64,000 nt of DNA, taken from contig OZ024744.1 of assembly GCA_964016885.1 (NCBI GenBank), positions 85,932,001 to 85,996,000 of the forward strand. Direction: 5' to 3'. The translations under genes and the position numbers were made by a program. This document shows, piece by piece, positions 1 to 60,896 of the stretch; positions within the stretch are counted from its first letter, which is position 1, and every line of letters starts with the position of its first letter. Source of the stretch: Eledone cirrhosa (taxonomy: Eukaryota). The notes under the pieces were generated by a model. That model searched no databases and was not told where the DNA came from. It worked only from the letters and a program-made list of their open reading frames with translations.

Positions 1-603
1 TCTTCGATAAGCTTTTGCCGGTCAATTTGTAAAATATGTTGAGACATAGATATCTGAAACGAAACACGTCATTAACATAAATTTGACCTATGCTTTGATT
101 CCATATTTTTTCTTTCTTTCAATTTCATATATATATATATATATATATATATATTATATATATATATTATATATATATATATATATATATATATATATAT
201 ATATATATATATATATATATATAAACAAGGTTTATATATATATATATAATTTATTTTGAAACTTTTTCATTATTTGCTAAACCTTGTTTATATATATATA
301 TATATATAAACAAGGTTTAGCAAATAATGAAAAAGTTTCAAAATAAATTTTAAAAAATTTACTTTACCTACTATAGTTACCTTTACCGATCGGTTTCGAA
401 TCCCAAAAATAAAACGGAGACCATATATATATATATATATATATATATATATATATAAATGGGATAGAATGAAACGAAATTTCATTACTCACTCTTAGTA
501 CGGCACTTACTTAAATGTAAGTATGTATGTATACGTACATAGATATATGTATACAGACGTACAGTAGTATGTATATATATACATACATGCACACATATAT
601 ATA

Positions 604-920
604 TATGCACGTATCGGTTTACCGAACATTTATTATAATGCTCCGTTTGTTTGTTTGTAAACATTTATCGTTTTCGGTGTGCCCGGCCGACTGAACTCAC
701 TCGACATGCAAATTAGGCTGCTCAGCCGTTAATATGCATAAGGAAAGTATATACTTTCAGACGTTCAACCATCTGGCAGGAAGGTATACGATGCTGAGGA
801 TAGCTAATAAGCTTGAAACTAGTACATCGTTCCTGTGAGAGTTTTGAACAAAAAGGTGACGTGGTTGCCTAAACACTGTGCGGCGTATAATAAATGTTCG
901 GTAAACCGATACGTGCATAT
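604..920 (+). mobile_element. Non-coding PLE-type mini-element with inverted termini and internal HHR
   Basis: 604-638 (atatgcacgtatcggtttaccgaacatttattata) is the reverse complement of 886-920. HHR at 789-829. A second family copy lies at ~6940-7230. Confidence 0.7.
789..829 (+). ncRNA. Minimal type-I hammerhead ribozyme
   Basis: cgatg-CTGAGGA-t agct aata agct t-GAAAC-TA-GTA^-catcg. Stem I is cgatg/catcg, stem III is the palindrome ACTAGT, triplet GUA. Confidence 0.8.
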
Positions 921-1857
921 ATATATGTGTGTATGTTGTATGTATATATATACATTCTGTATACAGTCTGTATAAATATATGTATGTATATATATATATA
1001 TATATATATTCATATATATATATAAGTATATATATATATATAAGTATATATATATAAGCATATATATATAAGTATATATATATATATTTATATATATATA
1101 TATAAATATATATATATATATATATATATATATATATGTAGTTGGATAAATGAACAGAGAACATAAAACAGAGAGGCAGTACAAATGATATGGTTTTTAG
1201 CTTCACGCTTGAGAGTGGGGTGTATATATATATATATATTTATATATATATATATATATATATATATATATATATATATATATATATATATATATATATA
1301 TATATTTCGTTTCTGAATTTGTTTAGCATAACAATATATATATATATATATACATAAATATATGTATATACATAAATATATGTACAAACATATATATATT
1401 TAAATATATATAAAAATATATAAATATATATATGTACATGTATATACATACATACAAATATATATACATATATATATATATATATATATATATATATATA
1501 TATATATATATATATACACACATAGCATACATATATATATACACATGCGCTCACATACAATCACACACACAGTCACACACAAACACACACACACATACAT
1601 ACACACACACACACACACGCAGACACACACACACACACACACACACATATATATATATATATATATATATATATATGTGTATATATGGCTGAACACGAGG
1701 GAATATGTAACTATATAAGAATTATAAGGATCTCTAGACAAGATAAGAATCGATTCGTTAATCAGAAATATACACTGAAACTGATTCTTTCATAAATAAA
1801 TGGATTAAATTAAACCAGAAAGAAAAACAAACAACAAAAAAACATACATACATAAAC

Positions 1858-2770
1858 GTATATATATGTATGTATGTATGTATGTATGTATGTATGTATG
1901 TATGTATGTATGTATGTATGTATGTATGTATGTATGTATGTATGCATGTGTTTGTATGAATTTGTGTGTGTATGTATGTATGCATGTGTGTATGTATGTA
2001 GGTATGTATGCATGTATGTATATGTGTATGTATATGTGTATGTATGTATATATGTATGTATATATGTATGTATATATGTATGTATATATGTATGTATGCA
2101 TGTATGCATGTATGCATGTTTGTCTGAATTTTTGTATGCATGTATGAATGTATGAGTGTATGTATGTATGAATGTATGTATGTATGTATATATGTATGTA
2201 TGCATATGTTTGTATGAATTTTTGTAAGTATGTATGTATATATGAATGTATGTGTGTATGTATATATATATGTATATGTGTATGTATGTATGTATATATG
2301 TATATACGTATAAATATATATGCATGTTTGTGTGAATTTTTGTATGTATGTATGAATGTATGTGTGTATGTATGTATGAATGTATGTGTGTATGTATGTA
2401 GGTATGTATGTAGGTATGTATGTATGTATATGTGTATGTATGTATGTATGTATGAATGTATGTGTGTATGTATTAATGTATGTATGCATGTATGTGTGCA
2501 TGTATGTTTTATATATATTTGTATGATCGTAAGTATGTATTGACATATATGTATGTGAATATGCATATTCGTATGAACGCGTGTATGTACGAATGAATGT
2601 GTGTACATATGCATTTTTGTATAAATGTATGTATGTATTTATGTATGAATGTATGTATGTATTTATGTATGAATATATGTATGTACATATGCATTTTTGT
2701 ATAAATGTATGTATGTGTATGTTTGATGCGTGTGTGTATTTATATGAACGAGTGGCTGAATGTATGTGTG
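1858..2770. repeat. Degenerate (TATG)n microsatellite array
   Basis: Direct reading; explains the YIHT/MYVC pseudo-ORFs. Confidence 0.95.
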
Positions 2771-2943
2771 AATATACATACACACACACACACACACACA
2801 TATATATATATATATATATATATATATATATATATATATATATATATATATATATATATATATATGTGTGTGTTTGTATGCGTGCGTGTGAGCAAGTATA
2901 TATGTATATATATATATATATATATATATATATATACACATAT

Positions 2944-3112
2944 ATAACGAAGGAAATGTGGTAAGGAGCCAGGTGGACCATAACGCACCAAAGTACTCAA
3001 TACTTAGGGTAGTAGAGTGGGTAATAGGAATTAGCCGTCGAAACGGCTTGAGCTCAGCCGCCGGGGTCTTACTTGTTCCTATATATATATTTAGGAACCA
3101 GTAAGACCCCGA
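2944..3112. mobile_element. Short (TA)n-flanked structured repeat family (copies at 4281-4480, 39876-39904, 40945-41172)
   Basis: Shared aagtactcaatacttagggtagtagagtgggtaatagg and agccgtcgaaacggcttgagctc motifs; every copy is bounded by (TA)n. Confidence 0.7.
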
Positions 3113-57828: not shown

Positions 57829-57880
57829 TTCTTCTTCTTCTTCTTCTTCTTCTTCTTCTTCTTCTTCTTCTTCTTCTTCT
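57829..57880. repeat. (TTC)n
   Basis: Direct reading. Confidence 0.95.
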
Positions 57881-58827
57881 CCCCTTCCTCCTCATCCCCA
57901 CTCCCCACCCCCCGCGAGTTATCGCTGTCGACGCCAGGGTGGACTTGAATCTTGAACGCCGTATGGTGTGTGTGTGTGTGTGTGTGTGTGGATGGTGTGG
58001 GAGTGTGTGTTCTGAGCCTCACACGCATAACTACATTCGTTCTTATTTCTCTACTAATTACACATGTTTGTCAACCATGATTAGATAAATAGTGTTTGAT
58101 TTCTTTACAGCCTCCCAACATAGCCGCACCAACAAAATATAACAACCTGAAGTCCACTCACCCACTGATGTTAAGAAGAAAGTATCAATAAATTCCTATC
58201 GCTATAAACAAACATATTTTTAATCATCATCTCTCTATCCCACTATAAGTATGTATGTACATATTTACACACACATTCACACTCATTTATATATATATAT
58301 GTATATATATATATATATATATATATATATATATATATATATATATATATATATATATATATATATATATATATATATGTATATATATATATATATATAT
58401 ACATATATATGTATATATATATATAGTGGTAAAAAAACGGGAGGTTATGTATCAAAACTTGGTAGAGTACCAAGGACGAATTCAGTATAGAGTCCGGTAT
58501 ATATATATAAATATATACATATATATATATATATATATATATATATATATATATATATATATATATATATATATATATATATATATATATATATATATAT
58601 ATATATGTATATATCAGAATAAATATGGTTTTATAAAGATAGTTTCCATTTATTAATATTAATGATATTATACTCCAGAAGATTGCTGTCGACTGCTTCT
58701 AATCTGTTATAAATTAAGTTTGTTGAATAATCAAGAAATTAAATAACTCATTGTTTATATATATATAGTACGGTGAAATAGTCATCTTAGTGCTAAATCA
58801 AGTACTCTATGCACAGGCAAAGTGTAA

Positions 58828-59126
58828 ATAATAGAAAAAGCGAGGAAGTTTTGTTTACATATAAACAATATTAAAAAGAAATATTTATTGTGTATCGACC
58901 TGTTACGCGCGTTTCGCAGAGTATTAGCTCAACGTGACCCACAGGAGTTATGGACCCGACTCCAGTATCGATCTACTTCGACATCGAAACTGGAGTCAGG
59001 TCCATAACTCCCATGGGTCACCCTAGCCAATCCTCTGCGGAACGCACGTAACAGGGCGATACACAATAAATATTTCTTTTTAATATTTTTCATATGTAAA
59101 CGAAACTTCCTCATTTTTTCTATTAT
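58828..59126. repeat. Diverged ~145-bp-arm palindrome of a PLE terminus
   Basis: Arms are reverse-complementary with many mismatches; HHR 3' half GAAACGCGCGTA on the minus strand. Confidence 0.8.
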
Positions 59127-59262
59127 ATATATATATATATATATATATATATATATATATATATATATATATATATATATATATATATATATATATATAT
59201 ATGAAAGACGTAAAATAAGAAAATTTTAAAATTTAAAAATCAACTTACTTACTAAAATTTTC

Positions 59263-59348
59263 ACTCCAACTAATTAGTTTCTGTAATGGGATAAATATAG
59301 TTACATAATATATATAACTATAGAGAATTCATTACGTCATCAGGGAGT
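59263..59348 (-). ncRNA. Type-I HHR with long stem II (identical copy at 59803-59888)
   Basis: actcc-CTGATGA-cgtaatg...cattaca-GAAAC-TAATTA-GTT^-ggagt; stem III is ACTAATTAGT. Confidence 0.8.
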
Positions 59349-60896
59349 CTATTCTCAGCTAAGTTCCCAGGCAATGCGCGGACACTAGGAACCCATATAA
59401 AAATAATAATTCAGGAGATGGAATGAAGCTAGCGAGGACTAAATTCCGGAGCACTGAAAAAATTTCACTGCCTCTGGTCAGTGGCAGATTCTAAAGAATC
59501 AATCACGTGACACCGAGGTTAATCAGTTAGGAGCGGGGTGGTATTATGACAAGAGCCTACTACTACCATGAAACAGCAGTAAATTTTGGCAAGTTTTGCT
59601 CAACAAATAATTTGGAGTTAAATATAGAGAATTAGTACATCTACCAACATATGTGTACAGATGTACACTCATGCTAGCAAATAAATAAGTTATGTCTTAG
59701 TACCTATGTGGTTCTATGCAGGTGAGTGCAGAACAATTATATGAAAAACGTAAAATAAGAAAATTTTAAAAATTAAAAATCAACTTACTTACTAAAATTT
59801 TCACTCCAACTAATTAGTTTCTGTAATGGGATAAATATAGTTACATAATATATATAACTATAGAGAATTCATTACGTCATCAGGGAGTCTATTAAGACAT
59901 AACTTATATATTTGCTAGCATGAGTGTACATCTGTACACATATGTTGGTAGATGTACTAATTCTCTCTCTCTCGCTATATATATATATATATGGCTAATA
60001 TATATATATATATATATATATATATATATATATATGGCTAAACAAGGCAAAACCAGATGGATAATAACAATGACATTGATATATTTATAATATACATACA
60101 TATATATACATATTTATATAATATATGTATACATATATATATTTGTTTTACGAGGTATATATATATATGTGTGTGTGTGAGTGTGTGTGTTGGTGTGTAT
60201 GTAGGTATGTATAGTGTTGTGGGCTTTCATCGGTTCCGACGACGAGTGTTCCATGTGTTTGGTCAAGCGAAAAACCTACTCGTGAAATAAACGCGCAAGC
60301 GGCAAAACATTCAACATACATATGTATTTTTATTCTATTCTTACGCTGATTCAGTGTGATACAACGTGTGACAAGGCTGGCCCTCTGAATTGCAGTTACA
60401 ACTCATTGTTGCCAGAGAGTGGACTGGATCAACGAGAAATAAAATGTCTTGTTCAAGAACACAATGTACCACCATTATTCGAACTCACAATCTCCTGAGT
60501 CAAACACCCAACCTTCTAAGCCACTAGCCTTCACAACAACATTTATTTGACAGTGTTGTTATTACACAACTGTAATTTCTTGAGGGTATGTAAAAGAAGA
60601 CTATCCAGTTAATTCACAAAGATTCACATACACCAGTATCCTTTATTCATAGGGATTAAGGATAACCTGGGATTAAAGAAGATCGATAACAGCAAAATAA
60701 ATCCAAAGCCAACACCACTACCACCGCCATTATCACCACTACCACCACAATAGTAATAGACGCGATGGTCACAGAGGGTCTGCTATATCATGTTCAGCTT
60801 TGCTTAGCGATAACATTTGAAATCATTCTCTAATTACATAAAGTAGCGTTCCTTTTTATATAGATGGTATCTTTACTGATACATTCGTAGATCGAA

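Follow-up and report, generated by a model that had tools for sequence, protein, structure and literature searches.

Hammerhead-bearing islands in the (TA)n tracts of an Eledone cirrhosa locus are probably 3' ends of Penelope-like families, with a minority of retrozyme-like units

What are the short, palindromic, hammerhead-bearing islands found in the (TA)n tracts of a 64-kb stretch of the Eledone cirrhosa genome (contig OZ024744.1, positions 85932001-85996000; hereafter the window, meaning the whole stretch analyzed)? The host genome is 3.0 Gb in size and TA-rich. A preliminary description of the window had proposed a dense, mostly non-coding system of short fold-back units carrying about 20 hammerhead cores and mobilized by Naiad- and Neptune-like reverse transcriptases (RTs). 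According to our analysis, the islands are probably the hammerhead-bearing 3' ends of many Penelope-like element (PLE) families inserted in (TA)n, mostly 5'-truncated copies of coding elements, with a minority of retrozymes likely copied in trans by the same RT-endonuclease proteins. The features read directly from the copies are the family structure, two fixed 3' ends, head-to-head arms with one end each, links to open reading frames (ORFs), and intact ORFs of the Hydra clade.

The window was scanned for the type-I hammerhead structure, i.e., CTGANGA, stem II, GAAA, stem III, NUH, and stem I. CTGANGA cores occurred 39 times, compared to 18.9 in shuffled sequence, and nine complete type-I hammerheads were found, compared to a mean of 0.085 and a maximum of 1 in 200 local dinucleotide shuffles. 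The remaining 13 of the 22 sites examined are damaged, variant, or truncated. An intact form of the families of the damaged sites was found elsewhere, except for families E and D. The sites are as follows.

794 plus, 7074 plus, 36698 plus, 37108 minus, 39732 plus, 45263 minus, 45634 plus, 59343 minus, 59883 minus: complete type-I hammerheads
4715: 5' strand of stem I gone at an inversion junction; intact form in locus L167
6224, 24255, 24606, 27025: stems damaged
8484: stem II test failed (family D)
10135, 41648: stem I mismatch throughout family E
22313, 42060: U3:A8 core variants; intact U3:A8 form found 5 times in the 600-kb genome sample described below
22930: 1-nt insertion in the hammerhead
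30064: without G12
35449: G at the cleavage position; duplicated Hydra hammerhead, predicted inactive

The 22 sites fall into 13 sequence families, or 11 when related pairs are merged, so the claim of at least 10 unrelated families holds. Each query returned 905 to 4,018 first-look candidates, as a claim of multi-copy families would have it. Islands bounded by microsatellite are a feature of part of the set, with 13/22 sites lying in an island of at most 1 kb between (TA)6 runs. An inverted copy at most 3.5 kb away accompanies 10/22 sites (12 including 8484 and 59343), but the 24255/24606 pair belongs to a larger local inverted duplication and is not an element's own terminus. Rfam searches yielded no hammerhead among the matches listed for the whole window, which were microsatellite-driven microRNA matches with none at gathering score, nor any in two short stretches. 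Single-strand folding recovered stems I and II for families A and K and for both Hydra hammerheads, and did not recover the catalytic fold for most other families.

The genome was sampled as 60 stretches of 10 kb at round coordinates, of which 33 came from the four largest contigs, holding 54% of the bases. With stem I required to be at least 4 bp long, this 600-kb sample contained 86 intact hammerheads, compared to 0 or 1 in each of 10 shuffles. The density of 143 hammerheads per Mb (bootstrap, 88 to 212) corresponds to 2.6-6.3 x 10^5 per genome when extrapolated from the 600 kb, and the sample rate becomes 120 per Mb without one satellite-array stretch that holds 15 hammerheads. At 141 per Mb (9 in 64 kb), the window is not a hammerhead hotspot. 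Helix III was a short palindrome (at least 80% self-complementary) in 64 of the 86 sampled hammerheads, in agreement with the palindromic stem III described for most window cores. Proximity to (TA)n was evaluated with 72 hammerheads from the first 40 sampled stretches plus the window: 79% had a (TA)5 within 300 nt downstream and 42% had one upstream, compared to 23% of random positions. In 590 kb, repeat blocks containing TA had 683 edges, of which 194 were recurring element ends; this lower bound counts in some SINE-like (short interspersed element-like) and low-complexity clusters. These edge counts show targeting of TA tracts, not creation of them by the elements. The idea that the elements generate much of the local architecture is partly supported, by these edges and by the microsatellite-like tracts spread by the Hydra 3' untranslated region (UTR) described below.

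To which elements do the islands belong? In longer copies, 13/22 sites as well as family L lie 0.35 to 1.5 kb downstream of a GIY-YIG ORF, a terminal-repeat location within an RT/GIY-YIG element that was not found for families A and K. Another 4/22 sites are in the closed units of A and K, and 5/22 are in families B, D, G, and H. Families C, F, I, J, and L are all downstream of GIY-YIG domains, the distance being 0.35 to 1.1 kb for E2, C, F, and J. The Penelope origin that had been proposed is supported by these links; the portrayal of the islands as a mostly non-coding system is not supported. The coding families of the window are as follows.

41915..45013 minus: Neptune-like element; RT 43491-44405, DKG motif, linker CX4CxxC, GIY-YIG at the C-terminus; 3' UTR with a damaged U3:A8 hammerhead at 42060
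20693..22483 plus: Neptune-like endonuclease and 3' UTR, family F; U3:A8 hammerhead at 22313
41312..41890 plus: family E, a 5'-truncated copy of an autonomous element's 3' end; hammerhead at 41648; inverted arm with tail 41312-41419
9772..10605 minus: family E copy; hammerhead at 10135; fold-backs at both ends
45472..45724 plus: family E2, a relative of E; intact hammerhead at 45634; decayed copy at 29878-30072 minus
24569-24717 plus, 24138-24292 minus, and 6110-6340: family C 3' ends; damaged hammerheads
33487..36860 plus: 5'-truncated Hydra-clade element; broken RT and GIY-YIG 33607-35132; 3' UTR rich in microsatellite, with hammerheads at 35449 (degenerate) and 36698 (intact, predicted cut after 36743)
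36921..39830 plus: second Hydra family; endonuclease fragment 38044-38800, 3' UTR, hammerhead at 39732; long inverted arm with hammerhead 37108 and tail
4279..4486 plus: family L fold-back, representing a Hydra element's 3' end; inverted arm and the 3' half of a hammerhead
2944-3082 and 40942-41176: further family L copies

In family E (4,018 first-look candidates), the 3' ends are fixed and the 5' ends vary. Many copies continue upstream into the C-terminus of a GIY-YIG domain, and downstream the family leads into the start of the next ORF. At locus L251, the E unit runs head to tail into an ORF start and RT, with both 3' ends within the first 30 codons. Family C corresponds to the 3' UTR of an element with GIY-YIG, to which the fragment at 26051-26554 is related. 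We presume that family E is Nematis-like, and our clade label for family C is likewise an assumption. The anticipated Neptune-like RT is present at 41915..45013: a DKG motif, a CX2-5CxxC linker, and GIY-YIG at the C-terminus were found at 42879-44992 minus and 20693 plus, although this assignment is motif-based and the linker is also found in Nematis.

The other RT is misnamed as Naiad-like because its protein matches the signature of the Hydra clade. Naiad is characterized by an N-terminal endonuclease, CxC and DKA motifs, and the lack of a canonical hammerhead, whereas the protein found here has a C-terminal endonuclease and a DKT motif and comes with a hammerhead. Its RMRWKA, DKT, and CxCX5C linker motifs, C-terminal GIY-YIG, and missing CCHH were read by eye in the 714-residue frame of locus L261 against section 11 of PMC8557442, making this a motif-based assignment. 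The RT of the 33487-36860 family had 41,897 candidates genome-wide, and open frames of about 714 residues were present in many of the 150 scored matches, at 91 to 97% identity. The unit has a tandem period of about 4.3 kb, above the <3 kb that is a typical rather than strict trait of the clade, and combines hammerheads with (TA)n insertion, both of which are clade traits. One hammerhead lies 226 nt before the ATG and two lie in the 3' UTR, corresponding to window sites 35449 and 36698. This 3' UTR is 2 kb long and contains about 1.5 kb of TATG/TG/TA-like sequence (window 35130-36860; loci L252 and L269-L288). The segment 33487-33600 had been taken to bear the RWK motif; it matches instead the reverse complement of the Hydra 5' region. 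Family L is the commonest fold-back, with 18 insertions in 590 kb, and tblastn matches to the Hydra endonuclease were found in 4/18 long L copies, one in sense orientation about 1 kb upstream (L369) and three on the opposite strand. In both inverted and non-inverted L copies, 5' ends cluster 34 to 44 nt upstream of the cut site, inside stem II, which marks a strong stop. The core of the long L copies is CTGAGAA in 18/18 of a query-biased set, or a U3:A8 form (L029, L347).

Each well-sampled family (K, A, E, L, and Hydra) has two fixed 3' ends, 60 to 120 nt apart, which pass into (TA)n via 2 to 5 nt of TA-like sequence. Measured from the predicted cut site, 105 K arms at 64 unique loci ended near +70 (42 arms), near +182 to +193 (46 arms), or elsewhere (17 arms). 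When two arms are joined head to head, they use different 3' ends: this was the case for 25/25 pairs in K and 17/17 resolvable pairs in its K2 subfamily (42/42 together), for 18/19 pairs in A, and for 5/5 pairs in Hydra, with the K2, A, and Hydra pairs counted by hand. Either arm can be the longer one, and inversion junctions differ among copies. Insertion into (TA)n and inverted arms, both part of the preliminary description, were thus recovered.

Truly short non-coding units do exist, as had been suggested: families A and K in the window and family M elsewhere.

455..990 plus: family A insertion; intact hammerhead, core 794, with predicted cut after 824; arms 455-663 (inverted, reaching the long 3' end) and 662 to about 990 (direct)
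6945..7330 plus: family A copy of a second subfamily, lacking an inverted arm; intact core at 7074 with predicted cut after 7104
59203..59966 minus: family K insertion; direct arm 59893 to 59203, inverted arm 59890-59966; intact cores at 59883 and 59343, predicted cuts after 59808 and 59268

Family A (2,766 candidates) is closed in that its own 3' end directly precedes its own 5' start. The unit measures 420 to 446 bp, with a tandem period of 441 to 446 bp, or about 422 bp in locus L308 (G000:C28:110000001-110010000), whose entire 10 kb is a family A satellite array with 15 intact hammerheads. Family K (2,795 candidates at 95 to 98% identity over the full query) has a period of 540 bp and forms arrays of up to about 5 units; K2 is 79% identical to K and has a period of 530 bp. 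Family M is a 311-bp unit found in a near-identical head-to-head array at L254 (G000:C9:15004000-15009000). The longest ATG-initiated ORFs in the A, K, and M units encode 60, 42, and 30 residues. All three show the sequence hallmarks of retrozymes, i.e., head-to-tail units with one type-I hammerhead each, no coding capacity, and no long terminal repeat (LTR) organization, the 3' end of a unit being joined to its own 5' start, and A and K appear on this basis to fit animal non-LTR retrozymes. When the insertions of 14 families were roughly tallied over 590 kb, with possible double counting of E and E2, closed units represented 14/99 insertions, i.e., about 2-3 x 10^4 copies each when extrapolated from these small counts. 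Over four K subfamilies, stem II covaries, with two-sided changes in 6/24 predicted pairs (4 sequences). A diverged A-like closed unit with a partial tandem was also seen at locus L055. In 31/34 family A copies, the octamer ATGCAAAT occurs at most 130 nt upstream of the hammerhead (L002-L030; window, about 700-715). Newt satellite 2 has a small nuclear RNA-type promoter; a literature search on the octamer in newt satellite 2 found nothing relevant and did not confirm this.

How would such insertions arise? By analogy with the Penelope-like Poseidon element of the green anole studied in vitro, the Penelope protein would nick both strands of its (TA)n target, and two complementary DNAs (cDNAs) would start at two internal RNA sites, one per target strand. 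In this proposal, the fold-back of each insertion is formed anew because the two cDNAs stop early and join head to head. Families A, K, and M would use the same machinery in trans. For K only, the upstream hammerhead of a tandem transcript may often self-cleave and so set the 5' end of a linear template that would keep one uncut hammerhead. Tentatively, and with somewhat less than even confidence, we suggest that K records a full Penelope cycle, in which a dimeric RT primes once per start site on opposite strands of the target from a linear RNA whose 5' end comes from hammerhead cleavage in vivo, in a genome whose several hundred thousand hammerheads would be much denser than those of any genome in the literature consulted.

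The part of this proposal that concerns cleavage comes from the 5' ends of K. Arms ending at +1 to +24 after the predicted cut numbered 27/125 passes by script and 22/125 after five chaining artefacts (L107+, L205+, L232-, L134-, and L171-) were removed by hand, compared to 62/1886 elsewhere (p=1.7e-9). At loci L105 and L184, K arms stop at +1, and several arms adjoin (TA)n directly. In addition, an unselected copy of a diverged K subfamily (L292) starts at about +8, where it is joined to (AT)6. We regard this pile-up as suggestive for one family and not as a general property.

Several observations weigh against it. The loci used for the 5'-end tallies were the top matches of similarity searches and not random draws. 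The pile-up is weak in K2, with 4 of about 19 second-or-later passes (27 loci; p=0.07, by hand tally with an approximate background), and five further K2 arms stop in the next 24 nt beyond +24. No cut-site pile-up of 5' ends was found in family A, none was evident in 11 further families, and a Hydra start at the cut site was seen in only 1/20 full-ORF loci; a general cut-site pile-up was consequently rejected. An AT-rich palindrome is located at +7 to +14 in K. The anole element did not need its hammerhead in vitro, and the data described there had no RNA reads ending at the cut site (PMC11167929). As for the supply of enzymes in trans, alignment of 3' regions gave no clear parent for K, A, or M among the 13 families compared, in a genome that has many more; the best match was to family G (z=3.5), and the best to an ORF-linked family reached z=2.4.

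The K pile-up could instead mark the start of transcription, or AT-rich microhomology, immediately beyond the hammerhead rather than cleavage, a possibility that we take seriously while considering it doubtful. It would account for the four loci that join symmetrically at the palindrome, for the spread of the ends over 22 nt, and for the weak signal in K2 and its absence in A and Hydra. Yet the excess remains without the four symmetric loci (14/117 K passes, p=8e-5), its 5' limit is the cut nucleotide itself (L105 and L184, and L282 for Hydra), and a similar palindrome at +38 to +49 coincides with few stops.

The template is a related matter. In the published retrozyme model, A, K, and M would be reverse-transcribed by rolling circle from circular RNA and not from linear cut RNA, which seems to us rather unlikely here, and both templates may coexist. 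Circles have been demonstrated for other animal retrozymes (PMC7229834), insertions of more than one unit and arrays of 3 to 5 units are common, and unit monomers show more structure than shuffled sequence (z=-4.3 and -3.7). Multi-unit copies could equally come from uncut tandem transcripts, however, and the K stop position is independent of the 3' end used, tracking the cut site and not one full turn.

It is very unlikely that all islands are independent non-autonomous mini-elements replicating as fold-back units. Such elements would explain the near-identical 205-bp fold-back present in all 40 scored family L matches, and no ORF link was found for B, D, G, and H. Against this, L junction loops vary from copy to copy and longer L copies reach the Hydra endonuclease; in E, E2, C, F, I, and J, the 5' ends vary and long copies carry ORFs; and closed units are the small minority tallied above. 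For these seven families, the mini-element explanation is largely refuted. Most improbable of all is that the closed units are satellites spread by DNA-level amplification without retrotransposition, a process that the 10-kb array of L308 makes a probable contributor to the growth of long arrays but an unlikely one to the dispersed copies. These resemble the coding elements in that they have two fixed end positions in (TA)n, 5' ends that vary, and inversions.

Compared with described systems, PLE 3' ends as the source of the islands have close parallels. For the anole Poseidon element, work in vitro reported a pair of RT start sites that flank the tail, both strands being cut and extended, and a predicted dimer (Frangieh et al. 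2024, PMC11167929). The families studied here would likewise have two internal RT starts flanking the tail, along with AT-rich targets and, in family E, starts that fall within the first codons of the ORF. In Poseidon the start is not homologous to the target and cleavage is dispensable, whereas the putative starts seen here share 2 to 5 nt of TA-like microhomology with it and the beginning of K copies is often right behind the predicted cut. The hammerheads resemble those of metazoan PLE pseudo-LTRs in their type-I topology, short palindromic helix III, and many families per genome (Cervera and de la Pena 2014, PMC4209133), and also in being mostly single motifs from truncated elements, with opposite-strand pairs 100 to 700 bp apart and a U3:A8 variant. 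Partial tandems, an inverted 5' copy, and a tail on one end are general features of PLE insertions (PMC8557442), and the tails are 60 to 120 nt here compared to 30 to 40 nt in described PLEs. The Hydra protein and its targets match those described for the clade, including C-terminal GIY-YIG without CCHH, RWK, DKT, CxCX5C, hammerheads, and (TA)n targets (Craig et al. 2021, PMC8557442), whereas its ~4.3-kb unit, microsatellite-rich 3' UTR, two hammerheads, and very high copy number depart from described Hydra elements, which are generally <3 kb.

The numbers also differ. Earlier surveys listed minimal motifs at about 2,000 and 1,300 in Schistosoma, 4,000 in the coelacanth, and 9,000 in Xenopus (PMC4209133), and hammerheads at 126,247 in the axolotl, >6,000 in a coral, and about 5,000 in a mussel (PMC7229834), with descriptors different from that of our scan. 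The estimate obtained here, compared with metazoan PLE counts of 2,000 to 9,000, is subject to the same difference in descriptor and to extrapolation from 600 kb. The word "ribozyme" is absent from the main text of a recent octopus repeat annotation (PMC13282606).

Like animal non-LTR retrozymes, the closed units are non-coding tandem units with one type-I hammerhead each, occurring as monomers and as short and long arrays (PMC7229834; 10.64898/2026.07.22.740005). These retrozymes have been proposed to be non-autonomous PLE derivatives (Cervera and de la Pena 2020, PMC7229834; Li et al. 2026, 10.64898/2026.07.22.740005). In those reports the link consists of co-occurrence and pseudo-LTR similarity, whereas the link drawn here is insertion anatomy, i.e., two 3' ends, head-to-head arms, and TA targets. 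PLE hammerheads, inverted pseudo-LTRs, tails, a bias toward TA, and the view of retrozymes as non-autonomous derivatives of PLEs have all been published. New here are the hammerhead density, retrozyme units bearing the Penelope insertion signature, which tie retrozymes to PLE enzymes by insertion anatomy, and the pile-up of K 5' ends behind the predicted cut, a testable hint of cleavage in vivo. Our literature search found no paper on strictly alternating 3' ends or on 5' ends at a hammerhead cut site; subscription papers and supplements may hold one.

The in vivo role of the PLE hammerhead and the enzymes that move animal retrozymes are stated as open questions in the parts of the literature consulted. 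Here, young non-coding units and an intact Hydra ORF share one genome at tens of thousands of copies each (rough estimates), and at such copy numbers counting alone suffices to test both the two-end rule and the pile-up at the cut site. If our reading of K is true, this family would give direct evidence, at the genomic level, that Penelope machinery moves retrozymes and that the template is defined by the hammerhead. A large part of the TA-flanked palindromes of this genome would be insertion scars, which automatic annotation may file as SINEs, miniature inverted-repeat transposable elements, or microRNA hairpins.

Families B, D, G, and H account for five sites, and no ORF link was found in the copies compared.

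4604..4764 plus: family B fold-back; the inversion junction runs through hammerhead 4715
8345..8611 minus: family D; long-stem-II hammerhead 8484; inverted arm 8516-8611
22833..23001 minus: family G; hammerhead with a 1-nt insertion near 22930
45039..45412 minus: family H; intact hammerhead 45263; damaged copy at 26885-27152 plus

Family H copies share a long upstream sequence, and the long family D copies L342, L344, and L350 share upstream sequence with CCAAT-like boxes. Apparent 5'-end clusters in family B were due to subfamily divergence from the reference.

Other features of the window include an inverted duplication at 23615-25266, with arms of about 800 bp that are 90 to 99% identical and centered on (TA)n. 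A (TG)n tract and two unrelated inserts are contained in the duplication, which probably arose in place, since only these two close copies were found in the genome by sequence search. TA-bounded fold-backs without a visible hammerhead core (245-340, 11973-12060, 25350-25766, and 58614-59124), some ends of which recur at other loci, are probably stubs of other families. A Pif1 helicase frame (49493-50533), a transposase remnant (56286-56939), and a C-terminal piece (13661-14254) presumably correspond to a Helitron-like element, a mariner-like element, and a long interspersed element, respectively. Finally, a SINE-like repeat of 180 to 200 bp is present in many copies, often as short tandems (3978-4154, 14500-14960, 57283-57649, and others).

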